Program-made: the position numbers and the translations under genes
Notes under the pieces: generated by a model
What the model was told of the DNA's origin: nothing
The model's input: the letters and a program-made list of their open reading frames with translations, nothing else
The model's database searches: none
In this document: piece by piece, positions 4,101 through 63,152 of the stretch
Layout of the letters: each line of letters starts with the position of its first letter
Position numbering within the stretch: position 1 is the first letter of the stretch
Assembly (NCBI RefSeq): GCF_044704955.1
Contig: NC_091995.1
Location: 26,908,001 to 26,972,000, forward strand
DNA length: 64,000 bases
Direction: 5' to 3'
From: Pristiophorus japonicus
Taxonomy: Eukaryota

Positions 4101-5324
4101 TAATAAAAACCTATAAGAGGACGAATTTGTTTTCCTTGTATGGGCTGCATTGATGAATATCGCACTGACAATAGTTGTCCTTACCCACTGCCCGGGTATA
4201 TGGGGAAATCGTGACCCAGGACTTATCGTCCATTCTTGAATTTTTAGATTGGACTGGGGCATATTTCTAGCGGAAATCTCGCAACGTAGCAAGGCTGCCT
4301 CCTTTCAGAGCAGAATTTTACAGCTCATATTTAAAGTCCCTCGTTTCTGCTTTTTAACCACTTGACTCATCAAAGTATCTATAGTTAATGTCAGTTCAGC
4401 ATCGTTTGCAGAAGGGACGCCTGCCTTTCAGTGACTCCATAGCTTTGAGTCAGGAATCTCACTCTCGCCTCTGAGTCAGAAGGTTGTGGGTTCAATCCCA
4501 CCTCCGAGACTTGAGCACGTAACCTGGGCTGACACTCGCAGTGCAGTACTGAGGGAGTGCTTCACTGTCAGAGGTATCATTGAGATCTGAGATTTCAGTG
4601 ATGACCTAAAAAAAAAATGGTTTGTCTTTGATTAACCTCTATTAGAAGGGAACATCTTTTAATATTTTACATTTAAATGAATATTGCACAGTGAGTTGGT
4701 AGATGCAAAAGATCCCACAACATTATTTTGAACAAGACCAGGGGAGTGCTCCTGTATCCAACTCCAGGACCTCCACCTCCACTAAGGTGTCAGCCCTGGC
4801 TCAGTGGGTGTGGGCATCGAGTGGAAGGCTGGCATTTATTGCCCATCCCTAATTGCCCTCTGAGAAGGTGTGTGGTGAGCCTTCTTGAACCGCTGCAGTC
4901 CGTGTTTTTTTTAATTTCAAAATATATTTTATTCATATAAAAATTTGCACAATACATTGGAAGAAAGTTCAGTGCATTTGGATGCAGCCATCAATTCCAT
5001 ACAATACATTTGGATGCTGACGGCAGTTCTGTTCAATTCATTTGCTTGCTTTACATTTCGAGGTACTTTTCAGTACAATCCAGGATACATTGTAATACAG
5101 TCATCAAATTAGTTTACTAGTGGCATTATACGGTACATGAAATGGGTGAGGGTACAGTTAAATTTCTTTGCAACATACATTACCAAACAGAACTTGCATT
5201 ATACATGGCACTACATAGAGCACCATGATCTGAAAAAACCTATGTATACAAATCGTTTCCAAGGACAGCCCGAGGGGAGTTTTATACTGATTCCAGCCCC
5301 TGGGTTTATCGTGGTGGAAGGGCT

Positions 5325-8300
5325 TTAAACTGTGGCTCTTCCCCACCGTGCCTTTGAGGCGACTGCACCAATTTTTAGTGTGTCCCTCAACACGAATTCC
5401 TGGATCTTGGATTGTGCCAGCCTGCAACACGCAGATGTGGATATCTCCTTGCTCTGGAAGACCAGCAAGTTTCGGCAAGACCAAAGTGCATCTTTCACCG
5501 AGTTGATGGCCCTCCAGCAGCAGATGATGACTGCCTCGGTGTGTGTCCCTGGGAACAGCCCGTAGAGCACAGAGTCCTGTGTTACGGAGCAGCTAGGGAT
5601 GAACCTCGACAGCAACCACTCCATCTCCATCCAGACCTGCCTTGCAAAGGGGCAGTCCCAAAGGAGATGGATGACTGTCCCGTCCATACCACAGCCAACT
5701 CGGGGGCAGAGTGCCATGTCTCTGAAACCTCGGCTGTGCATGAACGCTCTGACGGGTAGGGCCCTCCTCACCGCCAACCAAGCTACGTCTTGGTGCTTGT
5801 GTGAAAGCTCTGGCGATGAGACGTTCTGCCAGACAAGTTTGACAGTCTGCCCGGGGAACCACCCGACAGGGTCCACCCTTTCCTTCTTTCGTAGGGCGTC
5901 CAGGACCTTACGTGTCGACCACTGCTCTATGGCCATGTGATTAAAGGGTTTTTTTCTGAAAAACTTTTCCACGAAGGACAGGTGGAAAGGCATGGTGCAA
6001 CTGGTGGGACCGTTTCACGGCAGCGTGGCCAGGCCCATCCTTCGCAACATCGGGGACAGGTAGAACCTCAGCACGTAGTGACATTTGGTGTCTGCGTACC
6101 GGGAGTCGGTGCACAGCTTGATGCAGCCACACACAAAGGTGGCCATCAGGATGAGGGCCACGTTCGGAACATCCTTTCCTCCACTGTCCAGAGATTTGTA
6201 CATCGTGTCTCTGCGGACACGGTCCATTTTGGACCTTCAAAGTGGAAGATGGCCTGAGTGACTGCCACAGCACAGGAGCGTGAGATGGGCCAGATCTGTG
6301 CCACGCACAACAACACCGAGAGCGCCTCACTCCTGGTGACCAGGTTCCTTCCTGCAATGGAGAGGGAGCGCAGCTTCCACCATCCCAGTTTTTGTTTCAC
6401 TTTGGCAGTACGCTCTTCCCAGTTTTTGGCGTACGCCCCATCTGCTCCGAACCATATTCCCAACACCTTCAGGTAATCTGGCTTAACGTTGAAGGGAAAA
6501 AAGGATCGGTCGGCCCAGCTGCCAAAGAACATGTCCTCGCTTTTGCTGTGATTGACCTTCGCTTCCGAGGCCAGTTCAAACTGGTCGCAGATTGTGAGCA
6601 ATCTGTGGACTGACTGCGGATCCGAGCAAAAGACGGTGATGTCGTCCATGTACAGGGAGATCTTGACGTGAGTGCCTCCGCTGCCTGGGATCGTCACCCC
6701 TCTAATGCTCGCATCCTTCCTGATGGACTCGGCAAAGGGTTTGATACAGCACACAAACAAGACAGAGTAGAGGGGACAGCCTTGCCTGACTCCATACCTG
6801 ATCGGAAAGCTTTCAGTTTCCCACCCGTTGATTAGAACTGTGCTACTGATGTCTGTGTAGAGCAGTTGGATCCAATTGCGGATACCCTCCCTAAACCCCA
6901 TCTTGGAGAGCATGTCCATCAGGTACGCGTGCGATATCCTGTCAAAGGCCTTCTCCTGGTCCAGGCTGATTAAACAGGTGTCCGCCCTCCTGTCCCGCAC
7001 GTAGGCGATCGTATCCCTGAGTAGCGCGAGGCTATCAGAGATCTTCCTGCTGGGGACAGTGCAGGTCTGGTCCGGGTGAATCACCAGCTCACGAGCAGAC
7101 TTGACCCTGTTTGCGATGACCTTCGACAGGATCTTGTAGTCCACATTGAGCAGCAAGATGGGCCGCCAGTTTTTGATTTCCTCCCTATCCCCCTTCTGCT
7201 TGTAGATGAGGGTGATGATGCCTTTCCTCATTGATTCTGACATACTGCCGGCCAGAAGCATACCCCCGTACACTTCCAGCAGGTCTGGGCCCATCCAGTC
7301 CCACAGAGCCGAATACAACTCGACCGGTAAGCCGTCGCTTCCGGGAGTTTTACTCGTCGCAAGGGACCGGACGGCCTTTGTCAGCTCGTCCAGAGTTAGC
7401 GGGTGGTCCAGACTCTCCCATTCGCTGTCGTCTAAGACCTCTGAGATAGACGACAGAAAAGACAGGGAGGCCGCGCGGTCTGTGGGCTTGGCGTCGTACA
7501 GCCCGGCATAGAAGGATTTGCTGATCCTCAGCATGTTGGGCTGTGAAGACGTCACAGAACCATCTTCTTCCTTTAGGCTGCTGATCACGGAGCTCCACTG
7601 TGTACCTTTTGGAAGAATAAACGCGAACACGTCTCATCCTGCTCGACGGAGCGGACTCTGGAGCGGAAGATGATTTTGGAGGACTCTGAGGCAAAGAGCG
7701 AGGCTTGCTGGCACATCACCTCTTGGAGTTCCTCCGTGACATCGACCCCCATCGACTGCAGCAGGAGCAGGTTTTGCATACTCTTCTGGAGTTGGGACAA
7801 TTCCCTCTGTCTCCCTCTCGCCTCCTGAACACCTTTGAGGATGAAGAACCTCTTGATGTTTGTCTTGATTGTTTCCCACCAGTGCATCGGGGAATCACAG
7901 AGGGGTTTTACGGTTCTCCAACCTTTGTAATCCCTCTTGAGTTCCTCAACGTTTTCTGGGGTCAACAGTTTCACGTTGAGCTTCCATATCCCACTGCCCA
8001 CTTTCTGGTCTTCCTGTGGGAGGCAGTCGGCCAGTAGGAGGCAGTGGTCAGAGAAGAACACCGGCGTGACATCGGTGGATCTGACCTTGAGCATGTGGGA
8101 CATAAACAGGAAGTCTATTCTGGAACGGACAGACCCGTCTGGCTTCGACCAGGTGTATCTGCGCGGTGCTCCATCTGCAGGGTTGCTGAAGACATCGCAC
8201 AGCTTGGCATCTTTTACCACGTCCATCAGGAGTTTGGACGAGGTGTCCAGTTTGCTGTCGGCTCTGCTGGATTGTCCAGCCGCATCGATGATGCAGTTGA

Positions 8301-8627
8301 AATCACCGCCCAGAACGACCGGTCTGGATGTCGCCAGCAGCAGTGGGAACTGCTGGAGTAAGGCCAGCCGCTCGCTTCTGAGAGGCGAGGCATACACGTT
8401 AATTAGCCTTAGAGGAACATTTTTATACAATACATCTGCTACGAGGAGGCGGCCGCCCAACACCTCCTTAACTTCGGTGATGGTGAAGTGGCCTCCCCGC
8501 AGCAGAATGCTCAGGCCGGAGGAACGGCGATCGTTGCCTCCTGACCAAACGGGTGGTCCATGGGACCACCATTGCGACCACTGCCGGTAACTGCTGGAGT
8601 GCAGCAAGCCGCACTCCTGCAAGAATA
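5325..8627 (-). pseudogene. Tx1 ORF2 (APE-RT-CCHC), frameshifted; N-terminus continues at 19815-19917
   Basis: ORFs 7585..8694, 6146..7630, 6015..6227 and 5325..5993 are consecutive pieces in different frames. Joining 19917-19815 to 8627 restores MGLKIASINMRSIKSTTRCVSTLRYLAKVKADLLFLQECG. Confidence 0.9.
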
Positions 8628-9324
8628 AGAACATAAGAACATAAGAATTAGGAACAGGAGTAGGCCATCTAGCCCCTCGAGCCTGCTCCGCCATTCAACA
8701 AGATCATGGCTGATCTGGCCGTGGACTCAGCTCCACTTACCCGCCCGCTCCCCATAACCCTTAATTCCCTTATTAAATCTATCTATCTGTGACTTGAATA
8801 CATTCAATGAGCTAGCCTCAACTGCTTCCTTGGGCAGAGAATTCCACAGATTTACAACCCTCTGGGAGAAGAAATTCCTTCTCAACTCGGTTTTAAATTG
8901 GCTCCCCCGTATTTTGAGGCTGTGACCCCGAGTTCTAGTCTCCTCGACCAGTGGAAACAACCTCTCTGCCTCGATCTTGTCTATCCCTTTCATTATTTGA
9001 AATTTTTCTATAAGATCACCCCTCATCCTACTGAACTCCAATGAGTAAAGACCCAGTTTACTCAATCTATCATCATAAGGTAACCCCGTCATCTCCGGAA
9101 TCAACCAAGTGAATCGTCTCTGTACCCCTCCAAAGCCAGTATATCCTTCCTTAAGTAAGGGGACCAAAACTGCACGCAGTACTCCAGGTGCGGCCTCACC
9201 AATACCCTATACAGTTGCAGAAGGACCTCTCTGCTTTTGTACTCCATCCTTCTCGCAATGAAGGCCAACATTTAATTTGCCTTCCTGATTACCTGCTGCA
9301 CCTGCAAACTAACTTTTTGGGATT

Positions 9325-9495
9325 CCTGAAAAAAAAACGCTCAATCTCATCTGATCTTGGAAGCTAAGCAGAGTCAGCCCTGGTTAGTACTTGGATGGGA
9401 GACTACCTTGGAATACCAGGTGCAGGAGGTTTACCGTTGGTGGACTTTGATGTCACCCAGGTCGGGTGGCACGATTTAATGTAATCTAAAAGAGT
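9325..9495 (+). mobile_element. 5S rRNA-derived SINE3-like element or chimera with a Tx1-type 3' tail
   Basis: 9325-9432 resembles vertebrate 5S rRNA from about nt 17 to its 3' end (TCTGATCTTGGAAGCTAAGCAG..CCTGGTTAGTACTTGGATGGGAGAC..GGAATACCAGGTGC). The tail GTCGGGTGGCACGATTTAATGT..CTAAAAGAGT matches the Tx1 3' ends at 16584-16637 and 42700-42748. Confidence 0.85.
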
Positions 9496-10430
9496 TTCAT
9501 GCACAAGGACCAATTGTGGAGCACTGGAGGCGTGGCCTATTCAATTGGAGCCCTGCTGCTGAGAGAGGAGCAGCTACCAACTTTTGCTCCTGCCTGGAGT
9601 GAGCCCTGAGACCAGCCCAGGAAGAGAAGGAAGGAAGGGGCTTCACCACCAACTTTCACCCAGAGGGAGAGGAGGAAAAAGCAGAAAACTTACAACTTTT
9701 TACCATTTCTACAAAGAGTTGGAGAGAGGGGGAAAGACCAACAACAACATCCAGTGTGGAAGGAGGGAGACTCTACCATTCTACAGGTGGGTGTGGGTGC
9801 ATTTCCCAAAAAGACTTTGTTGTATCGGTGGGGGGAGGAAAGAAGACCACTGAGGGCCGGAACATCGCGGGGGGTGTGTGTGTGTGGAAAGTGTGTGTGG
9901 GGGCCTTGCTTACAACTAGGCCCCACACACAACTGAACCCCCCCCCCAAATTACCTAGCCTGGGATAGCTGGAGCTACCAGGCTGAAGATTTCTTTTCTT
10001 TAAATACCCATTTTAACATCGTTAGGATTGTGTGACTGGTTGGCTCTAGCTGCCCCAGGTGAAGACATCTTCTCCCCTCACCTGAAGACCACCCCAAAGA
10101 CTATTTGTGTTTTGCCATCTGGGGATTGCACCCACCCACAGCTGCGAGGGGAGACCTGCCCTCGCAGTTACCCCCCCCCTTCCCACCCCCCTCTCTCTTT
10201 CTCTGTTACTCTGTTTCTCCCCTCTCTCTCTGAGACCCCTTTCTCCCAAATTAATTTTTAAAAAAACAATTGAGACAACTGAGCAGAGGGAGCAAGGCCC
10301 CTCCCCAATTGCCAACTAGGGGAGAGGTGTGCCTCGTTAAGGGCTCCTCTGCTCAGTCTTTAGACAAGAGGCCAATTAAGACCATTAAGGCCTGTGACTT
10401 TGGGGTGGGTGTAGCCCTTAAAGGGACCCC

Positions 10431-12527
10431 GTGATGGCGACTCCATCCACGCCGGTGGCAGGGCCAGCAAGGACATATGCGCAGGCGGTGTCCACATCCA
10501 CGGCACCTCCTGCGCCACCCGCTGCCCTGCCACCTTTTCGACTTATTACAAAAAAACACGGGGTCAAGAGCTACACTCACCCCACAATGACCATCGAGGA
10601 GTGCGTGCGGGCGATGGCTGGGGTAGTCGGCCCCTCGGCCATTGTCGCAGCCTCCAAGATGTCTGGAAAGGCCGTGTTCTTCCTGGGGTCGGAGCGGGCG
10701 GTGTCCCTGGCCCTCGAAAAAGGGCTCACGGTGGGCGGGACGTTCCTGCCGGTGGACCCTCTCGAGGCCACCGCGCAGAGGGTCATCGTTTCAAACGTCC
10801 CGCCCTTTGTTCCCGCTGAGCTCCTCCTCCCTCACCTACAACAACTGGGGGAGGTAAGGTCGGGGATCAACCCCATACCGCTCGGCCTCAGGGAGAACAG
10901 CCTGCGCCACATGTTCTCCTTCCGCTGCCAGCTCTTTGTCCGGCTGGCGCGGGAGGAGACGACGGAGGGAAATTTCAATGTGGTGCACGAGGGGACTGCC
11001 TACCGCGTCTTCTGGACGTCGGACGGCGTGCGGTGCCATGCCTGTAGGGAGGTGGGGCATGTTCGTAAGAACTGCCCCGCCTCCAAGGCCGCCAAACCAC
11101 CGAGGGCGGCCAAGGCTGGCGCCGCCGCCACCCCTCCCCCTAGTTGCGTCCGTGTGCCGGGAGCCGTAGGTGCGCGGGCATCGTCGGGGGCCTTTGTTTT
11201 CACGGCCTCCGGCGGGGGGGAGGGAGAGCGTCCGATCGAAAAGAAGGCGCGGAAGAAGACGAGACATCTAGAGGCGGGTCCCCTCAGTGCGCCGGAAAGT
11301 TTGACCACCGCGCTCAGCCCAACCCAGTCACCGGCGAGCGCGGGGTACCCTGAGCCCGTGCTCTTGAACAACACCGCAGAGGGGCCCGGGCGCGGGCAAG
11401 AAAAGGAAAAGGGGGGGGCGGAGCGGGAGGCCTCGGCAGACATGGAGGTCTCGCTGCCTCAGCGCACCTCCAGCATCAAAAGGAGGCGCCGCTCCGTTGA
11501 GGCGGAGGGGGAGCAACATCCCTCCGTGGAGGAGTCGGTGCCCGCCGCGTGTCCCGCGTCCCCCACCAGCGCCCCCAAGCAGCGCCGTAGGCGGGAGGAG
11601 TCTGTCCCCGGGGAGGGTGAGACAGTCGAGGCGGCCCAGCCTCTGCCTCCCGGGGATGGCGTGGAAGATCTGCCTGTCGTGGGGGGCGTGGGGCTCGCGG
11701 AGGAATGCATTGCCGCCGGGCCGGGCGTCCCGGGGACTGAGGCGGGCGAGGCCGAAAAGGCCGAACCTCAGCCCGCCCAGCCAATACCCAACTTCCCCCG
11801 GGAGTCGCTCGACCCGGCAGAAAATGAAATTAATAATTTTAATAATACTGTACATGCTGGGCTGGGGGGTGGCAGCGGGGAGGGGGAGGAACACCCACCC
11901 TCGCCTCTTGCTGTGGAGCTGGAGCACTTGGAGAGCCTGGGGATTTCCTATGGCCGGGTCTCTCCTTGTTCCCCAGTTCCTGGGGCGGAGGGGGAACCCC
12001 TTCCGCTGTCATTTCCCGACCCAGCACCATTTTTAAAAGAGCCCAGTGGGGCCTCCTCTGCCGACGATCCTGGGGGTGGGATCGGGGCAGTGCCAGGGCC
12101 GGTTGGAGCGGCCGGGTCATTTGCCGTACCTTGTGCGGTCGATGGGCCGGTTGCTGGCGGCCACCTCCCGGAGGAGGACGGGGACTCGGTGGGGGACGCG
12201 GGAGAAAATCTCGAGACCACCGCCAGCGAGGCGGTGGATCTGCTCGCGGCCGCCGCCGAGACCATCCTCATTCCTGCAAAGGAACTCCGGGACTTTTTGG
12301 CCCAGAGCTGGGGTCGCTGCAACCAAGCCCGACTGGCCCTGGAAAAATGGTCCCAGCCAGAGCTTATCAAGGGGTCCGTCCGCGCCGCCGTTAAAACCTT
12401 GGCCGCGGGCGGGCCCTTGACAAAGGAGCAGCACCTTGAGCTGCGCGAGCTCGAGGGACTCCTCGCTGGGCTGCGGAGGGAGCGGAGTTCAACAAAAGAC
12501 TCCGCTCCCTCCCCCACAATAGGTTAA
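10431..12527 (+). CDS. Tx1 ORF1 protein (698 aa), open
   Basis: RRM-like N-terminal region (RVIVSNVPPFVP), CCHC zinc knuckle CHACREVGHVRKNC, long acidic/Pro-rich tail; homologous to 38512-40614. Confidence 0.88.
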   Translation: MMATPSTPVAGPARTYAQAVSTSTAPPAPPAALPPFRLITKKHGVKSYTHPTMTIEECVRAMAGVVGPSAIVAASKMSGKAVFFLGSERAVSLALEKGLTVGGTFLPVDPLEATAQRVIVSNVPPFVPAELLLPHLQQLGEVRSGINPIPLGLRENSLRHMFSFRCQLFVRLAREETTEGNFNVVHEGTAYRVFWTSDGVRCHACREVGHVRKNCPASKAAKPPRAAKAGAAATPPPSCVRVPGAVGARASSGAFVFTASGGGEGERPIEKKARKKTRHLEAGPLSAPESLTTALSPTQSPASAGYPEPVLLNNTAEGPGRGQEKEKGGAEREASADMEVSLPQRTSSIKRRRRSVEAEGEQHPSVEESVPAACPASPTSAPKQRRRREESVPGEGETVEAAQPLPPGDGVEDLPVVGGVGLAEECIAAGPGVPGTEAGEAEKAEPQPAQPIPNFPRESLDPAENEINNFNNTVHAGLGGGSGEGEEHPPSPLAVELEHLESLGISYGRVSPCSPVPGAEGEPLPLSFPDPAPFLKEPSGASSADDPGGGIGAVPGPVGAAGSFAVPCAVDGPVAGGHLPEEDGDSVGDAGENLETTASEAVDLLAAAAETILIPAKELRDFLAQSWGRCNQARLALEKWSQPELIKGSVRAAVKTLAAGGPLTKEQHLELRELEGLLAGLRRERSSTKDSAPSPTIG

Positions 12528-12553
12528 GGTAGAGGTTGCACTATGCTTTTGCC

Positions 12554-15500
12554 ATGAAGATAACCATAGCCAGCCTCAACATCAACGGCGGCAGAGGGGC
12601 ACGCCGTAGATTTGACAATTTTTCGCTCCTGCGGGAGGGGAAATATGCGGTGTGCTTCCTGCAAGAAACCCACACCGTTCCGGGAGACGAAGCCACGTGG
12701 CTCCTGGAATGGCAAGGAGAGGTCCGCATGAGCCACCTCACCGCCATTTCTAGTGGGGTGGCCATCTTGCTGGGCCCGCATTTTCAGCCGGAGATCTTGG
12801 GGGTCGAGGAGCCCGTGCCAGGCCGCTTGCTGCACGTAACGGTTCGCCTGGGGGACGTGCCGCTCCATCTCGTGAACGTGTACGCTCCTCAGCCCGGCCC
12901 GCAGCAGACGCGCTTCTTTGAAGAGGTGTCCGCTCTTCTTGGCTCCGTCGACGTCGGCGACTGCATTGTCCTTGGGGGGGATTTTAACTGCACCCTCGAG
13001 GCGAGGGACCGCTCCGGTGCCCCGCAGTGCATGACGGCGATGGAGAAGTTGAGGGACCTGGTCGGGTCCTTCGACTTGGTGGACGTCTGGCGAAATCTCC
13101 ACCCCGACTCCAGCGCCTTTACTTGGGTGAGGCCTGGAGTAGGATGGTCTAGAGTCGACCGCCTTTACGTGTCTCGGGCGTACGTTTCCTGCGTCCCGGC
13201 GGCCTCCATGCGGCCGGTGCTGTGTTCGGACCAGCACCTGGTGTGGGCTGAGCTCGCTTCGCTCCGCGCGAGGACGGGGTCCGCGTACTGGCACTTTAAC
13301 AACCGGCTGCTGGAGGATGTGCGGTTCCAGGACTCATTCCGTCGATTCTGGTCCGACTGGAGAAGGAAGCAGGGGGGCTTCCCCTCCTTGAGGCTATGGT
13401 GGGACGTGGGCAAGGCTCACGTCCGCGTCTTCTGTCAAGAGTACGCGAGGGGGTCGACCAAGAGGCGGGCGGCCAGAGTCGGCGCCTAGAAAAAGCGGTG
13501 CTCGACCTGGAAGCCCGTCTCGGTCAAGTCGTCCAGGACCCGGCCCTGCGGACGGTGTACGAAGCAAAGAAGGCCGCGCTGAAGGGTCCCGAGGCGCGTT
13601 CGTGAGGTCGCGGATCCGGTTCCTGCGGGATCTGGACCGCGGCTCCCCCTTCTTCTACTCGCTGGAAAAAAGGCAGAGTGTCCGTAAGCAGCTCTTGACG
13701 CTGCTGGCCGACGACGGCTCTCTCGTCTCGGATCCGGAGGGCGTCAACAACAGGGCCCGTGAATATTACGGGGCTCTGTTCTCTCCGGATCCGTCCAGCG
13801 AGGAAGCGCGTAGAGTTTTGTGGGAGGACCTGCCGAAGGTCAGCCCGGAGGGCGCCGAAAATCTGGAAGCTCCGCTAAGCCTGGCGGAGCTGACCAGTGC
13901 CCTCGACCGGCTCTCGAGGGGAAAATCCCCGGGGCTGGACGGGCTGACCGTGGAGTTCCACAGGGCGTTCTGGGACGTCCTGGGGAGCGACTATGCGCGG
14001 GTCCTGGGAGAAAGTCTGGCGACCGGGGAGATGCCCCTCTCTTGGTGCAGGGCAGTCATCGTCCTGCTGCCTAAGAAGGGCGATCTCCGCCTCCTTAAGA
14101 ACTGGCGCCCGGTCTCCCTCCTCAGCACGGACTACAAAATCTTCGCCAGGGCGATGTCTGCTCGCCTTGGTGCCGTGCTGGACCACATGATCCACCCCGA
14201 CCAGTCCTACACGGTCCCGGGCCGGACAATCCACGATAACATCCATCTGGTCCGGGACCTCATCCATTGTTCCCAGGAGGCTGGTCTGTCGGTCGCCTTC
14301 CTATCCCTCGACCAAGAGAAGCCGTTCGACAGGGTGGATCACGACTATCTGCTCGGAACTCTGCGCGCTTTCGGGTTCGGGACGCATTTCGTCGCCCGGA
14401 TCCGACTTTTGTACGCCGCCGCGGAGTGTCTGATTAAGGTTAACGGGTCCTTGACGGCGCCCCTTCGCTTTAGGAGAGGGGTGCGCCAGGGATGCCCCAT
14501 GTCCGGCCAGTTATACGCCGTTTGCGTGGAGCCTTTCCTGCGCCTCCTGCGGACGAGGTTGACGGGACTGGCTCTGCAAGGGCCGGGCGTGGAGGTCGTC
14601 CTCTCGGCTTACGCCGATGACGTGCTCCTCGCGGTAGAGGATCCCGCTGACCTGCGGAGGATGCGTGAGTGCCAGGAGATTTACTCGGCCGCGTCCTCCA
14701 CCAGGATCAACTGGGAGAAATGTTCCGGACTCCTGGTGGGTCAGTGGCGGGTGGACTCCCTGTCGGAGGAGCTCAGGCCTTTTGCCTGGAGCACGACCCA
14801 TCTCCTCTATCTGGGAGTCTACCTTAGCCCCGACGAGGGAGCCTGGCCGGCGAACTGGCAGGAGCTGGAGGCCAAGGTCGCCGCTCGCCTAGGGCGCTGA
14901 ACAGGACTGCTCCGAGTGCTGTCCTACAGGGGTCGAGCGCTAGTCATAAACCAGCTAGTGGCCGCAATGTTGTGGTACCGGCTGGTCACTTTGACCCCTC
15001 CCCCTGCGTTTGTCACCAAGATACAGAAGAAGCTGGTGGACTTCTTCTGGAACAACAGGAAGCACTGGGTCTCTGCTGCGATCTTGAGTCTCCCGCTTGA
15101 GGAGGGCGGTCAGTCGTTGGTGTGCATCAGCGCCCAGCTCGCGACTTTCCGTCTTCAGACCCTGCAGAGATACCTTTACGTCGAGCCCCCTCCTAGGTGG
15201 TGCGCTCTGGCGAGGTATTTCTTCCGCCAGCAGCGCGACCTCAATTATGACACGCAGCTCCTGTTTGTGAACTTGGGGGGTGCCAGGACCGCCCTCCGGG
15301 AGCTGCCTGTCTTTTACAGGGAACTCATCAGGGTCTGGAACAAAGTCTCCACCAAGCGCTGCTCTCCACCGGCTGGAGTGGCGGCCGTCCTGCAGGAGCC
15401 GCTGCTCGGGAATCCGTACCTCCACGACCGACGTTTTATGTGGCGGTTCAAAGAGAGGGCTGTGGCTGGTGAGGTGACCAGGGTCAGGGACCTGCTCGAT

Positions 15501-16435
15501 GGCGGAGGTGCGGGCTGGATGGCGACAGACACGATGGCGCGGCGCCTAAATTCTGCCAACGTCCGCCACGCGGCCGATGCCATCGAGTCGCTAAAAACAG
15601 CTCTGGGCCCTGACTCCGTTAGGTGCATCGAGGAGGCTCAAGCACGTGGGGAGATCCCGTCCGAACTGACCCCCGTCCGGACGGAATTCCTCATCGGCGC
15701 CAAACCCTGGAACCTCCCTTGGGGGCCGGCGCCTCACAACTTGATACGCCTCGGGGAAACCCCTCCGCGCGGAACTGAAAGGCACGGAGGGGTTTCCTGT
15801 CCGGGCTGCTCCTGCACACTCTCAACTTTGCCATCCTCGCCGGCCATCCGGACACGCCATGGCGTACCATCTTGCCGTCCGGAGGAGGCGGCGGTCCCCG
15901 ATGGAGGGCACTCTACGCAGGGGTCCTCCCACTATTCATCGGGGACTTGGCCTGGAGGGTGGTGCACAGAGCAGTGCCGTGCAACAAATTTTTAAGCCGG
16001 TTCACGGACTCCCAGGCCGCCTGCAATTTCTGCGGTCTGGAAGAGTCCGTGTTCCATGTTTTTATGGAATGTACAAGGTTGCAGCCCCTGTTTTATTATT
16101 TGAAGGGGCTGCTCCTGAAATTCTGGCTGAACTTCAGTCCCACTCTCCTGATCTTTGGGCACCCTGTGCGAAGGGGAGCGGGTAGGTCCGAAGGCCTCCT
16201 CGTAGGACTGCTCCTGGGCACGGCCAAGGGTGCCATCAGCCGGTCCAGGCAGCGGGCGGTCGAGGGGGTCGTTCAACCTGACTGCCTGCCTCTCTTCCGC
16301 TCTTACATCCGGTCCAGGGTGTCCTTGGAGATGGAGCACGCGGTGTTCACCGGTACGCTCGCGGCCTTCCGCGAGAGGTGGGCACCGGAGGGACTGGAGT
16401 GCATCATCACGCCCGGCAACCAAATTTTAATTTGA
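12554..16435 (+). pseudogene. Tx1 ORF2 (APE endonuclease, RT, zinc finger) with few disruptions
   Basis: MKITIASLNING, FLQETH, GGDFNC, SRVDR; RT PGLDGL, WRPVSLL, GVRQGCP, AYADD; C-terminal CNFCGLEESVFHVFMEC. Broken by indels near 13480-13600, TGA at 14898-14900 and a micro-inversion/frameshift near 15760. Confidence 0.93.
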
Positions 16436-19009
16436 TTTTACGTTTTAAAGTTTAATTTGTTTTAAATGCCGATGCTTTTAGTGTCCCCTTCCCTTTTATA
16501 GGGGGCACTGGAAAATTGTGATTTTAGTGCCCAAACAAAAAAAGAAAAACTCAAAAAAAAAGGAAAAAAAGGGCCTTGTAAATGTCGGGTGGCACGATTT
16601 AATGTTTTATGTTTTTGCAGGTAGACTCTAAAAAAGTTTCATGCACAAGGAACCCCAGGTCCCTTTGCACCGCAGCATGTTGTAATTTATCCCCATTCAA
16701 ATAGTATTCCCTTTTTTTGTTTTTTTCCCTAAGGTGGATGACCTCACACTTTCCGACATTGTATTCCATCGGCTAAACCTTAGCCCATTCGCTTAACCTA
16801 TCTAAATCTCTTTGCAGCCTCTCTGTGTCCTCTACACAACCCGCTTTCCCACTAATCTTTGTGTCATCTGCAAATTTTGTTACACTACACTCTGTCCCCT
16901 CTTCCAGGTCATCTATATATATTGTAAACAGTTGTGGTCCCAGCACCGATCCCTGTGGCACACCAATAACCACCGATTTCCAACCTGAAAAGGACCCATT
17001 TATCCCGACTCTCTGCTTTCTGTTAGCCAGCCAATTCTCTATCCGTGCTAATACATTTCCACTGACTCCGCGTACCTTTATCTTCTGCAGTAACCTTTTG
17101 CGTGGCACCTTATCGAATGCCTTTTGAAAATCTAAATACACCACATCCATCGGTACACCTCTATCCACCATGCTCGTTATATCCTCAAAGAATTCCAGTA
17201 AATTAGTTAAACATGATTTCCCCTTCATGAATCCATGCTGCATCTACTTGATTGCACTATTCCTATCTAGATTTCCCGCTATTTCTTCCTTAATGATAGT
17301 TTCAAGCATTTTCCCCACTACAGATGTTAAACTAACCGTCCTATAGTTACCTGCCTTTTGTCTGCCACCCTTTTTAACCAGAGGCATTACATGAGCTGCT
17401 TTCCAATCCAGAGTCCAGAGAATTTTGGTAGATTATAACGAATACATCTACTCTAACTTCCGCCATCTCTTTTAATACCCTGGGATGCATTTCATCAGGA
17501 CCAGGGGACTTGTCTGCCTTGAGTCCCAATAGCCTGTCCCCCTAGTGATAGTGATTGTCTTCAGGTCCTCCCTTCCCACATTCATGTGACCAGCAATTTC
17601 TGGCACGGTTTTTGTGTCTTCCACTGTGAAGACCGAAGCAAAATAATTGTTTAAGGTCTCAGCCATTTCCACATTTCCCATAATTAAATCCCCCTTCTCA
17701 TCTTCTAAGGGATCAACATTTCCTTTTGTCATTCTTGTCCGTTTTATATATCTGTAAAAGCTTTTACTATCCGTTTTTATGTTTTGCGCAAGTTTAGCTT
17801 CGTAATCTATCTTTCCTTTCTTTATTGCTTTCTTAGTCATTCTTTGCTGTCGTTTATAATTTTCCCAATCTTCTATTTTCCCACTAACCTTGGCCACCTT
17901 AAACGCATTGGTTTTTAATTTGATACTGACCTTAATTTCCCTGGTTATCCACGGCTGGTTATCCCTTCTCTTACCGCCCTTCTTTTTCATTGGAATATAT
18001 TTTTGTTGAGCACTATGAAAGAGCTCCTTAAAAGTCCTCCACTGTTCCTCAATTGTGCCACCGTTTAGTCTATGTTTCCAGTCTACTTTAGCCAATTCTG
18101 CATTCATCCCACTGTAGTCCCCTTTGTTTAAGCATAGTATGCTCGTTTGAGACACTACTTCCTCACCCTCAATCTGTATTACAAATTCAACCATACTGTG
18201 ATCACTCATTCCAAGAGGATCTTTTATTAGGAGATTGTTTATTATTCCTGTCTCATTACACAGGACTAGATCTAAGATAACTTGCTCCCTTGTCGGTTCT
18301 GTAACATACTGTTCTAAGAAACAATCCCGTATGCATTCTATGAATTCCTCCTCCAGGCTACCCCGTGCGATTTGGTTTGACCAATCGATATGTTGGTTAA
18401 AATCCCCCATGATTACTGCCGTTCCTTTTTCACATGCCTCCATTATTTCCTTGATTATTGCCCACCCCACCGTGAAGTTATTATTTGGGGGCCTATAAAC
18501 TACGCCCACCAGTAACTTTTTCCCCTAACTATCTCTAATCTCCACCCACAATGATTCAACATTTTGTTCATTGGAGCCAATATCGTCTCTCACAACTGCC
18601 CTGATATCATTCTTTATTAACAGAGCTACCCCACCTCCTTTCCCTTCTTGTCTATCTTTCCGAATCGTCAGATACCCCTGCATGTTTTAATACCAGTCTT
18701 GGCCACCCTGCAACCACGTTTCTGTAATGGCCACCAAATCATACCCATTTGTAATGATTTGTGCCGTCAACTCATTTACTTTATATTGAATGCTGCATGC
18801 GTTTAGGTGGAGTGTTTTACTACTAGTTTTTAATCCATGATTTTTAGGTTTGACCCCTCCTGTAGCCCCTTTACATTCAGTGGCCCTTTTTGTTTTTTGC
18901 CTTGGGTTTCTCTGCCCTCCACTTTTACTCATCTCCTTTCTGTCTTATGCTTTTGTCTCCATTTTGTTTCCCTCTGTCTACTTGCATTGGTTCCCATCCC
19001 CCTGCCACA

Positions 19010-19810
19010 TTAGTTTAACTCCTCCCCAACAATACTAGCAAACACTCCCCCTAGGACATTGGTTCCGGTCCTGCCTATGTGCAGACCGTCCGGTTTGTAC
19101 TGGTCCCACCTCCTCCAGAACCGGTTCCAATGCCCCAGGAATTTGAATCTCTCCCTGCTGCACCACTGCTCAAGCCACGTATTCATCTGAGCTATACTGC
19201 GATTCCTACTCTGACTAGCACGTGGCACTGGTAGCAATCCTGAGATTACAACTTTTGAGGTCCTACGTTTTAATTTAGCTCCTAGCTCCTTAAATTCATC
19301 TCGTAGGATCTCATCCCTTTTTTTACCTATATCGTTGGTACCAATGTGCACCACAACAACTGGCTGTTCACCCTCCCTTTTCGGAATGTCCTGCACCCGC
19401 TCCGAGACATCCTTGACCCTTGCACCAGGGAGGCAACATACCATCCTGGAGTCTCGGTTGCGGCCATAGAAACGCCTATCTATTCCCCTTACAATCGAAT
19501 CTCCTATCACTATCGCTCTCCCACTCTTTTTCCTGCCCTCCTGTGCAGCAGAGCCAGCCCCGGTACCATGAACTTGGCTGCTGCTGCCCTCCCCTGATGA
19601 GTCATCCTCCTCAACAGTACTCAAAACGGTGTATCTGTTTTGCAGGGGGATTACCGCAGGGGACCGCTGCACTACCTTCCTTGCACTGCTCTTCCTGCTG
19701 GTCTTCCATTCCCTAGCTGGCTGTGGACCCTTCACCTGCGGTATGGCCAACTCACTAAACGTGCTATTTACATCATTCTCAGCATCATGGATGCTCCAGA
19801 GTGAATCCAC
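19010..19810 (-). pseudogene. CR1 ORF1 with SGNH/GDSL esterase domain
   Basis: GDSIVRG, VCCLPGA, VVVHIGTND and DGLH motifs in ORF 19010..19864; its 5' end runs into Tx1 sequence. Confidence 0.85.
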
Positions 19811-21034
19811 CCTCATAGCAGGTCTGCCTTGACCTTGGCAAGGTACCGCAAGGTGGAAACACATCGCGTAGTTGACTTAATGCTACGCATGTTAATGGAT
19901 GCAATCTTCAAACCCATTTTTAAATTGATGGTTACAGTCCAAAAATTACATATAGATCACGCAGTCCTTTGGCCCTGTGGCCTGTTCCCGTATACATAGG
20001 TTTACTTTAAACTTTTCTACTGCACCTTGGCTGAGATATGGGTTGTCCTCTGCCTTGGGGATGGTTCGACCAGGGGACGCCAGCAGTGTGGACGGGAGGT
20101 CCTCCATGTCAACTGGGCTGCCCTCGCCTGGTGTTGGTTGTTCCTTGTGTGCATCCCCTGTGGTGTCATCGCTCACAGCGTTCTGGAGTTGGGGTGCATC
20201 TGTCACTTCGTCACTCCCAGAGATCCGGAGCCGGGGTGCATTGGTGACATCACTGCTCCCGGGGTCCCGGAGCTGGACTGCGCTGGTCGCATTGGCATGT
20301 TGCCTCTTCTTCTGCTGGTGGTAGTGAGGGTTTTTGCCTCGTCCTTCATCATTGGATGAGCTGCAGCCACTGCTGTCCGTCGTGGACTCTAGCCGTCTTT
20401 TGCCTCTCGTTTCTGCAGGAGGCCCCTTTTCCTTTGACTTGGTAGCCTTCTTCTTCTTGACGAGCTGCCATTCCTGTTTTCCTTCTGCTTCTGCTCCCTC
20501 CTCTTCCATGGACTTGGTGTCTCGGGGGGGAGTTTCACTGCTGGGTGCTAGTGTCTGGCAGCTTGCCATGGCTGCAGTCCGTGTGGTGAAGGTGGTCCCA
20601 CAGTGCTGTTAGGGAGGGAGTTCCAGGATTATGACCCAGCGATGATGAAGGAACGGCGATATATTTCCAAGTCAGGATGGTGTGTGACTTGGAGGAGAAC
20701 TTGCAGGTGATGGTGTTCCGAGGCACCTGATGCCTTTGTCCTCCTAGATGGCAGAGGTCATGGGTTTGTCAAAGCAGCCTGAGCGAGTTGCTGAAATGCA
20801 TCCTGTGAATATGCGAATAGCCCCAGAGCACAGATAAAAACACCAAATAAGTGGGGTTACGGGAAGGGCAATGCACTCTGCACAGGTAGCTGTACACTCG
20901 TAGCTTGAACTTATAGATTGAGACACAATGTGGCCACTGTTAGGAGCAGGGTTCTTAAGCAATAGAGGTGAGCAAACTGGGGGAGACAGGGAAAGGATGA
21001 GTCTGAGAACTAATGCTGTATCTCTGACTTACGA

Positions 21035-60375: not shown

Positions 60376-62079
60376 TAGTTTTCAAGTAGACATTCAATTG
60401 CCTTTTGAAAGTTACTACTGAATCTGCTTCCACCACCCTTTCAGGCAGTGCATTCCAGATCCTAACCATTTGCTGCCTGAAAAAATATTGTCCTCCCCGG
60501 CCACCATCCGTCCCTCCCTCCCTCCAGTTCTTTTGACAATTATGTTAAATCTGTGTCCTCTGGTTAAAGGCACTCGGGAATCAGGTTCTCCCTAACTACT
60601 TGATCAAAATCCCTCATAATTTTGAACAACGTTTTGAAATCTTCCCCCGAAACCTTTTTGCTTTACCCAGAATAATGGAGTGAGCCTTTAGCTCAGTGGT
60701 GGCATTCCAGCCGCTGAGTCAGAAAGAAGCAGCGTTTAAGCCCCAGTTTCACACAGTCGTGGATACTGGAGCTCTGGCTCAGGATTCAGAAAGCAGCTTT
60801 AAAGCATAAACACAGGAAGTCAGTCCAAGTACAGTAAAAAAAATAGGAGTACAGACAATGTTTTACAGAAATTGGAACTTCCTCTAGAGAATTTGGCCTC
60901 ATTCCGAAACAAAAAAACCTCAGCTGAATATTTTTAAAACAAGTCAGACTCTGTGTTTGATCATTAAACTCACTCTGCCCAAACACTCCACCCTGGGATT
61001 CCCCTCACAGCCAATCCTGATCGATAGCTTTCATCCCAGCGACTGGGTCCGAGCTCCAGAGGCCGACATATTGATGACGAAATTCAACTGCGGGCAGAAC
61101 GTACTGAACCCGCGGTATGAATCACCCGCTGGTTATCCACACCCTTCCATTTGCATTTCCATTGAAGTCACAGGGGGTAAAAATTCATCCCGGGCGCTAA
61201 TGAGCGGAATCGCATCAGACACTCGATATTCAGCTTTATCAAAATCAATGCCACGGAATATCAAGCGGGCCCAAGAAAGGGTGGCCGATTCCATTTTGAG
61301 CAAATGTCTAAGACCAAGAAAGAAAGACTCGAAGCATTGTAATAAAACACCAGAAAAATTACTGCTTCCTGTTGCGCCTGAAAATCTGGCCTTAATTTGA
61401 AGAAAGCATTTCAACAAGTGCAATTGCTGAAACTCATAAATGAGGTTCTGTTAACTTGGGGGGCAGGGGCAGCTTTATGGGCAGAGATGTGTTCAGGCAG
61501 AGGGATCGATAGAAAGCTGTAAAAACTCGAGGAGATTTGGGCTTGAATCACTTACGCCCAAAAGTGCACAATCTTTTAGACCGCATAAATGATTTGCAGC
61601 TCGGTTACACGTATCTCTGGGTGCAAATACGGAGGAATTTTGAGTAAAATCACTCTCTTATTAAACAAAGCATAATCATAAAGCATAATAACTCTGTTAT
61701 GAAACATAAGGCCATCACCCCGTTATTAAACATAACACAATTATGTTATTATTAATAAACATAGAGCAATCACCCTTCTGTTATTAAAATAATCACTGCC
61801 TTGTTTTTGTGGATCTTTGTAGGATTTATCCTGACTGGCCCCAAACCTGTGGCAAAGAAGTCTGCTGATGGTTGCATGCCGCAGCAATTGACCTGTACCT
61901 CAGTGTCTTGTGAAGGTACCCTTCAATCAGACCTGAGCATCAGCCAATAAGAATGCTGTATTTTAAAAATGACCGCATTTATTTTCAGTATAGTAATCAG
62001 GAAAATAGACTTGATCTCATCAGAATTAATCTTCAGTCGTGTTTTACTGCCATATATTGCTGATTCACATTGCAACAGA

Positions 62080-62372
62080 CTATGGGTGTGTTATGAAATG
62101 CATGTTTGAAAAGAAAAAATGTAAATGTACCGTCACCCATTCCGGGCTCTGTATTGTAACACATGAAATGTAATTTGTGTAAATGTACCACAATGTACCC
62201 TGTTTATTGTACTGAATCGCAGTTGAACAGAAAAACGAGAAATGTAACGGAACTGCCGTCAGCACCCAGATGTATTGTATGGGATTGCTGACCGCAGCGA
62301 AATGTAATGAAATGCCATTGAATGTACTGTACAGATTCTTTTTATGAATAAAGTATATTTTGAAAAAAAAAA
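62080..62372 (+). mobile_element. Tx1 3'UTR fragment with poly(A), related to the element at 4906-20570
   Basis: GAACTGCCGTCAGCAC/TC..ATGTATTGTATGG and TATGAATAAA.TATATTTTGAAA match the reverse complement of 4906-5035; 5' boundary approximate. Confidence 0.75.
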
Positions 62373-63152
62373 TGCTGCCTCAGGTAGGAGGTGGGTGGGG
62401 TGGTTTGACCCATCCACCTTCACGGAGGTGTGTGGGGGTGCTGACCCAATCCACCTCCATGGCACGAACCTGGTATTGCAGTACTTCCAGGAATGGTGCA
62501 GTGGCTCTCGGCCTTTTGGCTAAGAGCATTGGCGCAGAGTGATCCTTGATGTGTGCAAGGTGACCTCTGGCGTTTGTGATTTGACAAAGAATTGGAAAGA
62601 TTGGCTACGAAAATTATTTTTAAAAAAAATGCTGCCTCAGGTGGGAAATAGGAGGTGGGTGGGTGGGGTGGATTGACCCATCCACCTCCATGGAGGTGTG
62701 TGGGGGGCCTGACCCATCCACCTCCATGGCACGAACCTGGTATTGCAGTACTTCCAGGAACGGTGCAGTGGCTCTCAGCCTTTTGGCTAAGAGCATTGGC
62801 GCAGAGTGATCCTTGATGTGTGCAAGGTGACCTCTGGCGTTTGTGATTTGACAAAGAATTGGAAAGATTGGCAACGAAAAATTAAAAAAAAACATGCTGC
62901 CTCAGGTGGGTGGGGTGGATTGACCCATCCACCTCCACGGAGGTGTGTGGGGGGCCTGACCCATCCACCTCCATGGCACGAACCTGGTATTGCAGTACTT
63001 CCAGGAACGGTGCAGTGGCTCTAGGCCTTTTGGCTAAGAGCATTGGCGCAGAGTGATCCTTGATGTGTGCAAGGTGACCTCTGGCGTTTGTGATTTGACA
63101 AAGAATTGGAAAGATTGGCAACGAAAAATAAAAAAAAACATGCTGCCTCAGG
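62373..63152 (+). repeat. Three about 250-bp tandem units containing U2 snRNA-derived segments in permuted order (3' part then 5' part)
   Basis: ACCTGGTATTGCAGTACTTCCAGGAA(C/T)GGTGCA resembles the U2 3' stem-loop IV; CTC(G/A)GCCTTTTGGCTAAGA resembles U2 5' stem I. Units start at 62373, 62630 and 62895, each ends A-rich, and a terminal TGCTGCCTCAGG is at 63141. Confidence 0.88.

Follow-up and report, generated by a model that had tools for sequence, protein, structure and literature searches.

It is quite probable that the tandem array near the 3' end of the window (the whole 64,000-nt stretch of Pristiophorus japonicus DNA analyzed here) consists of three independent, 5'-truncated copies of a U2/U1-derived SINE and the end of a Tx1 LINE, likely inserted serially at one nick, each in front of the previous one, through the machinery of a U2-headed, Keno-type Tx1. 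We further propose, with about even confidence, that the SINE and the Keno-type LINE are replenished through insertions that home into U2 genes, in which the U2 head would restore the +1 position and the RNA of the elements would be made from the U2 promoter, and that dispersed copies pile up 5'-ward as an ordered subfamily record, their targeting reaching beyond primary sequence.

The initial annotation described four copies of TGCTGCCTCAGG bounding three units behind a Tx1 3' UTR and its poly(A), and this arrangement was confirmed. The 12-mer lies at 62373-62384, 62630-62641, 62895-62906 and 63141-63152, TRF reports 3.1 copies of a period of 247 across 62363-63152, and the Tx1 3' UTR piece (62085-62365, with poly(A) at its end) is 97.9% identical to the full-length Tx1 copy L104. 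The variable unit starts (element nt 118, 113 and 122 in units 1, 2 and 3) and the ~85 nt of other sequence were likewise confirmed, and no Rfam match and no origin were found for the latter. The degenerate U2 3' part followed by U2 stem I proved significant against the U2 gene of the same genome: in L007, a near-identical full-length SINE copy (99.6% to unit 3), U2 124-186 is matched at 53/65 positions (E 4e-13), and U2 7-29, starting 4 nt after that match, at 22/23 (E 4e-7). In Rfam, a full-length relative scored 61.7 bits, above the U2 cut-off; the window units alone reached 27.2 bits (E 0.0068), under the cut-off of 46, and were not detected at the gathering threshold. Rfam matches to a prion pseudoknot and to miRNAs were rejected as chance similarity to the G-rich duplication. 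The ‘circular permutation’ read into the units is an effect of truncation, as they represent the 3' two-thirds of an element that in full begins at U2 nt 1 and carries a U1 piece absent from the window copies. The features of the array are collected in Table 1.

Table 1. Components of the SINE/Tx1 array, numbered from the first nucleotide of the window
Feature	Position	Strand	Basis
Left flank joined to Tx1 piece across a 128-bp target deletion (5' target copy lost)	62073..62086	+	Flank runs 128 bp further to target in empty paralogue L138 and filled L149
3' UTR end and poly(A) of Tx1 LINE (U2-headed, Keno-type), nt 5430-5714 of 5.7 kb; probably last insertion	62085..62372	+	97.9% to L104
Target-site copy 1, without leading C	62372..62384	+	
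SINE unit 1, element nt 118-345 and A/T tail; third insertion; haplotype unlike units 2 and 3	62385..62628	+	Variants at element nt 172, 173, 226 and 338 found in 14-91 copies of aligned set
Target-site copy 2 with a TGGG extension matching the start of unit 3	62629..62645	+	Sequence
SINE unit 2, element nt 113-347 and A tail; second insertion	62644..62892	+	
Target-site copy 3, carrying AC of original target	62892..62906	+	Empty site: GTGGAAC then ATGCTGCCTCAGG
SINE unit 3, element nt 122-347 and A tail; first insertion	62904..63138	+	99-100% to dispersed copies
Segment derived from U2 nt 124-186 (stems III-IV), unit 3; counterparts in units 1 and 2	62951..63015	+	53/65 to own U2 gene, mapped from L007; Rfam alignment
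U2 nt 7-29 (stem I), unit 3; counterparts at 62506 and 62773	63020..63042	+	
~85-nt tail, predicted branched hairpin	63043..63129	+	
Target-site copy 4, original 3' junction with AC, running into flank	63138..63152	+	

The order of events can be read from the junctions. An empty paralogue, L138, preserves the target as GTGGAAC followed by ATGCTGCCTCAGG, the sequence that was duplicated. The dinucleotide AC precedes target copies 3 and 4 and is absent before copies 1 and 2; since AC is part of the empty site and survives in the window at these 3' junctions alone, either unit 2 or unit 3, and not the Tx1, was inserted first. The 5' junction of unit 2 runs on with the first bases of unit 3, and that of unit 1 with the following T, which gives the insertion order 3, 2, 1, i.e., growth 5'-ward. 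The Tx1 piece was probably inserted last, and the junctions do not fix its order relative to unit 1. It lacks a 5' target copy because 128 bp of target are deleted, and comparison with the paralogues indicates that a deletion later than or simultaneous with the Tx1 insertion took this stretch and most of the Tx1. At a second paralogue, L149, this site is occupied by two SINEs and a 2.6-kb Tx1, whose order differs from that in the window; as the L149 Tx1 is 96.1% identical to the window piece and other copies reach 98.2-98.6%, L149 was hit independently. Together with the unit haplotypes, the empty paralogue and the junction bases support the initial suggestion of serial insertions of a U2-derived SINE with TGCTGCCTCAGG as target-site duplication (TSD). 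The 12-mer is no specific target of the family as a whole: among the loci retrieved it is confined to the window locus and its two paralogues, and dispersed copies have TSDs of their own. We propose that the ORF2p of the Tx1 mobilizes the SINE in trans by target-primed reverse transcription, and that each insertion would leave the upstream flank and the target whole on its 5' side, so that the same site could be re-cut later.

Whether the unit is peculiar to this locus had been raised as a point to check. A search of the same genome with the unit returned 1,046 candidates, of which 40 were scored, all at 98-100% identity except unit 1, and monomers with their own TSDs exist; by these identities the SINE family is young. 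The main type, A (~350 nt), is composed of U2 1-29/35, U1 3-49, a repeat of U1 28-47, U2 97-147, U2 124-186, U2 7-29, the ~85-nt tail and poly(A), and a T5 run lies inside the SINE. In type B, a U2 1-190 segment that has small deletions precedes U2 2-30 and a tail; in type B0, a complete U2 is followed by U2 7-38 and a tail of 47 nt. Types B and A have the stem of the tail in common, apart from one paired change and an inserted hairpin, a single event in the predicted structure. Genome-wide, an exact 24-mer word from the tail occurs 2,600 times for type A, and exact words gave 507 occurrences for the variant A', 359 for B and 170 for B0, with reversed-word controls at 0 for all four; the first word tried for type B was dropped, as its 4 matches were locus-specific. 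The U1 and U2 pieces match gene variants of the same genome, and 180 aligned copies have subfamily variants in common, indicative of one family rather than independent snRNA retrocopies. Dispersed copies carry poly(A) and their own target duplications: TSDs of 7-24 nt, differing from locus to locus, were detected at 71/148 SINE loci, and about half of the loci had no clear TSD.

The 5' ends of the copies are far from evenly spread. Among 113 type A starts, 49 fall at nt 1-27, 1 at nt 28-105 and 44 at nt 106-133, the last making up 44 of the 64 internal starts and forming a peak within which the three window units also start; five B0 starts lie at U2 110-134, and A' copies are mostly full length (29/33). 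No shared 5' extension beyond U2 nt 1 was seen in the full-length copies (49/113 of A, 29/33 of A'), which start at or just past that nucleotide. We considered reverse transcription stopped by the Sm ring as the cause of the truncation peak, in agreement with the clustering of internal A starts at nt 106-133; against this, A' retains the T5G site and yet is full length in 29/33 copies. Trimming to the base of stem III is an alternative.

Tandem arrays are frequent in this family. Along contig C1, where SINE loci were taken in order and not chosen for arrays, 17/90 are tandem and 73/90 are not, against a chance expectation of ~1.5e-5. The upstream TSDs contain the first bases of the downstream element at L152, L191, L205, L211, L230, L234, L115 and L149, and duplications reaching into the downstream element in this way indicate the same 5'-ward growth at other loci. 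Tail types are ordered inside the arrays (11:0, 6:0, 8:0 with A upstream of B, and 5:2 for one pair). The subfamily ranking agrees with 24 and conflicts with 2 of 29 arrays, with the qualification that it was picked after the arrays had been seen and that the classifier probably mislabels old A copies as B0; private substitutions weakly favor an older 3' copy (12 vs. 5 in 24 arrays). One array (L232/L367) has at least six SINE copies, including a poly(A)-alone insertion whose duplication extends into a SINE head.

Target choice was studied at 104 sites, left from 219 loci (sites recovered for 112/219) after duplicate and complex loci were removed. The motif is approximately R-G-Y|A-W, worth about 2.4 bits beyond the +1 A, and three attempts found no strong target consensus. 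Upstream, the match to the U2 target is 3.3-3.5/10 vs. 2.6 in controls, and downstream it is no better; the 19 multi-hit sites are slightly richer in U2-target matches than the 85 single-hit sites. This weak motif cannot explain tandem insertion at 17/90 loci: estimated roughly by hand, the frequency of re-hits corresponds to ~ten thousand effective sites, or about 20 bits. Certain positions within other repeats are hit repeatedly. By analogy with the Drosophila dimers described in the available text of 10.1101/158386, strongly uneven site quality and a preserved 5' target most likely lie behind the re-hits; the motif analysis of the 104 sites did not find the determinant of site quality. One position in one repeat has been hit repeatedly, often by several elements in tandem (L084, L132, L207, L211, L359, L369, and by eye also L111, L187, L205, L274, L370, L371, L378).

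The Tx1 with this 3' UTR is a young LINE of 5.7 kb (1,216 first-look candidates, 40 scored at 97-100%), and its full-length copies start with U2 nt 1-44. SINEs directly follow 10/39 of the other scored Tx1 3' ends and also abut Tx1 5' ends, lying upstream of the Tx1 in L097, L106, L108, L115, L118 and L149. Within arrays, Tx1 and SINE have TSDs in common, and they have the U2 site in common as well. The small-RNA/Tx1 partnership suspected at the outset is thus supported, with the Tx1 as the proposed mobilizer of the SINE; a LINE with the same tail as the SINE was not found among 30 B0 loci. In a tree of 26 reverse transcriptases (RTs), the Tx1 groups with amphibian and unnamed proteins (97/92), and the sister of this clade is a mainly teleost one that includes Q76B34 (BAD04856), which may be KenoFr1. 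The neighbors of its RT have the Exo_endo_phos, RVT_1 and zf-RVT domains, and one of them is named TX1-like. The same domains were found in the Tx1 copy at 4915-8625 and 19817-20287 (minus strand) of the window, which is split by a block of ~11 kb. Whether the unit heads the Tx1 family at 4906-20570 had likewise been a point to check; that element, at 4915-20287, is an older sister subfamily, 88% identical to the young Tx1, and no U2 head on it was seen in the window. The first bases of the 3' flank of the sister Tx1 resemble the L161 target, where a repeat has been hit at one position by LINE and SINE alike. In L104, at about nt 59-66, the Tx1 5' UTR carries the octamer ATGCAAAT just past the U2 head, and the same octamer occurs at -204 of a U1 gene.

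Other histories of the array were weighed against serial insertion. Unequal exchange between the target duplications, tripling a single insertion in place, would suit the regular ~247-nt period and the 98% likeness of units 2 and 3, and is at odds with the three distinct 5' ends, with unit differences that are variants common to many dispersed copies, no private change being in common, and with the AC asymmetry and TSD extension, which mark separate cuts. Family-diagnostic sites distinguish unit 1 from unit 3, and array neighbors have the same haplotype in 4/37 cases vs. 10.6% for random pairs; from these haplotypes we regard triplication as practically excluded. The initial annotation had also offered the units as repeated 3' terminal units of a Keno-derived Tx1 that captured its former U2 flanks, to which 3' transductions may be added. 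Capture of a U2 5' flank did occur in the Tx1, as its U2 head shows, and the SINEs behind 10/39 of the other scored Tx1 3' ends also speak for this reading. Against the units being Tx1 parts, the Tx1 stops at a poly(A) of its own, the SINE usually occurs as monomers that have individual TSDs, the spacers are each locus's own TSD rather than one source flank, SINEs also lie upstream of the Tx1 (six loci), and 73/90 SINE loci are not tandem, so that we give this origin very little credence.

A single episode in which the whole array was laid down, an unligated nick at the 5' junction priming several RNAs in turn, would account for re-use of the nick without sequence specificity, for a nick constant within 1-2 nt and for growth 5'-ward. 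We nevertheless consider it improbable, because the order of the tail types (11:0, 6:0, 8:0) implies subfamily turnover between insertions, neighbors are no more alike than random pairs and the paralogue L149 was independently hit at the same site. Serial insertion of independent copies is the reading that we retain.

The origin of the SINE may be traced to the U2 genes. The second U2 piece of B0 mostly stops at nt 38, which is the Keno/Utopia site according to the available part of PMC4640811, and flank bases of the short-unit U2 gene terminate the first piece; these ends point to an ancestral U2 gene that carried an insert of 47 nt at the Keno site and was placed behind a whole U2. The structure suggests that a template switch, or a deletion between genes in tandem, produced the fusion. 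The join of U2 3' to U2 5' sequence would go back to this ancestor, in which a complete U2 ran into a second U2 gene broken at nt 38, and type A would later have acquired the U1 piece and a duplication of stem III.

Several insertions were found in the U2 genes themselves. In L276, L277, L285, L288 and L290, a Tx1 within a U2 gene array is followed by U2 from nt 38/39. In L276-L279, eight U2 5' ends lie behind the upstream sequence of the gene, comprising 1 intact U2, 4 Tx1 and 3 SINE A', which points to a cost for the host, as, across the 40 kb analyzed in one U2 array, insertions occupy 7/8 gene starts. Seventeen A' copies lie at U2 +1 with 0-2 mismatches, followed by an A tract and U2 nt 38 onward, and one A'-like copy lies at +1 of the other U2 upstream type (L294). 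Two U2-linked Tx1 copies that were checked have open frames of 581 and 1,147 aa. Nine dispersed A' copies (27 loci) are 98.5-99.6% identical to a U2-linked copy, and A' tails are the longest of the SINE types (median 19). We infer that an element inserted at nt 38 and joined via its U2 head restores a transcription unit under the U2 promoter; the location at U2 +1 would likely let SINEs with no known promoter borrow that of U2, and copies that re-enter a U2 gene and are fused through the U2 head could thereby serve as source genes. In L277 and L278, one Tx1 interrupts the U2 head of a second Tx1 at the point corresponding to U2 nt 38, resulting in tandem LINEs in the U2 array. The U2 genes of L031 and L284-L287 lie in tandemly repeated units of ~770 bp whose spacer is a GTT microsatellite, and their upstream sequence is a poor match to the U1 proximal region. 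The long-unit U2 repeat (L059, L060, L294) has a 74-bp Tx1 fragment about 70 bp behind U2, and apparent recombination via this fragment joins units bearing Tx1 ends and B copies.

The SINE might instead be transcribed from chance upstream promoters or by read-through, the U2-linked copies being dead ends amplified with the U2 array. We hold this to be unlikely, though deserving of some weight. No U2-linked copy of the main type A, the type in the window, was seen, the linked copies found being A', and the sequence upstream of the array that holds most of the U2-linked A' matches the U1 proximal region at 7-9/22 positions, vs. 11-12/22 for the other U2 type, which makes the promoter there putative. 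Flank-driven transcription has, moreover, been proposed for SINEU-2 (PMC4494074, available part). Against chance promoters, the full-length copies begin at U2 nt 1 or directly behind it, no common 5' extension having been seen, and the type currently found at U2 +1, A', combines the longest tails with dispersed copies that are nearly identical.

The closest known counterparts are the SINEU-1, -2 and -3 families of crocodilians, which occur with Tx1-Mar LINEs, were not found outside crocodilians and include tandem SINEU-3 around the TSD, alongside Tx1 elements with snRNA heads, all as given in the accessible part of PMC4494074, where their transcription is called an open question. As described there, both systems are short (<500 bp), non-coding poly(A) retroposons of U1 and U2 pieces with TSDs and no known promoter, with repeated 5' additions, partial duplications and tandem copies sandwiching a TSD, and both have a partner Tx1 that bears an snRNA head and has targets in common with the SINE. 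They differ in that SINEU targets Mariner-N4, whereas the targets seen here are U2 genes at nt 38/39 and thousands of dispersed sites including several repeats, and in that the present family is young (98-100%), has copies at U2 +1 and carries U1/U2 variants of its own genome. From these lineage-specific variants, with SINEU known by description, the SINE probably arose independently of its crocodilian counterpart. The U2-linked SINE and Tx1 copies are candidate source loci for the question of SINEU transcription. Our literature search, which covered listings and abstracts, found no snRNA-headed SINE outside crocodilians.

As far as the available parts of PMC4494074 and PMC4640811 describe Keno, the partner resembles it as a Tx1 LINE with an apurinic-type endonuclease, U2 resuming at nt 38/39, and departs from it in relaxed specificity (>1,000 dispersed candidates), a U2 nt 1-44 head of its own and SINE partners. 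Strict U2 specificity was not found among the 39 other scored Tx1 3' ends: 0/39 are followed by the intact U2 remainder, and 3/39 lie at the same U2 site within the U2-derived SINE B. Utopia, in the same portion of PMC4640811, has the same U2 site, tandem insertions and weak specificity in reptile families, with a restriction-like endonuclease in place of the Tx1-type found here. The tandem dimers of transposable elements, including R1 arrays, reported in the text available of McGurk and Barbash (10.1101/158386) similarly keep the TSD between units, have distinct 5' truncations and preserve their own target; the present arrays differ in one-directional 5'-ward growth, mixing of SINE and LINE, five or more units and a visible motif that is weak for the rate.

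The named loci with a SINE and an intact LINE at U2 +1 make promoter capture directly testable. That such a SINE apparently arose independently outside crocodilians, and once more with a Keno-related Tx1, suggests that U2-targeting LINEs repeatedly yield elements of this kind. In addition, one empty and two independently filled paralogues with a readable order offer a natural experiment on site choice and re-use by the Tx1 endonuclease.

Further elements were observed in the window. Within the block that splits the sister Tx1, a 5S rRNA-like sequence at 9312-9431 (plus strand; 53.7 bits, over the Rfam cut-off) is possibly a 5S-headed SINE. A second L1/Tx1-type LINE with endonuclease, RT and zf-RVT, its RT 39% identical to that of the U2-headed Tx1, extends over 10422-16432 (plus strand). 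At 17475-19876 (minus strand), a GDSL-esterase frame lies with an endonuclease fragment, a combination that occurs in CR1/L2-type LINEs.
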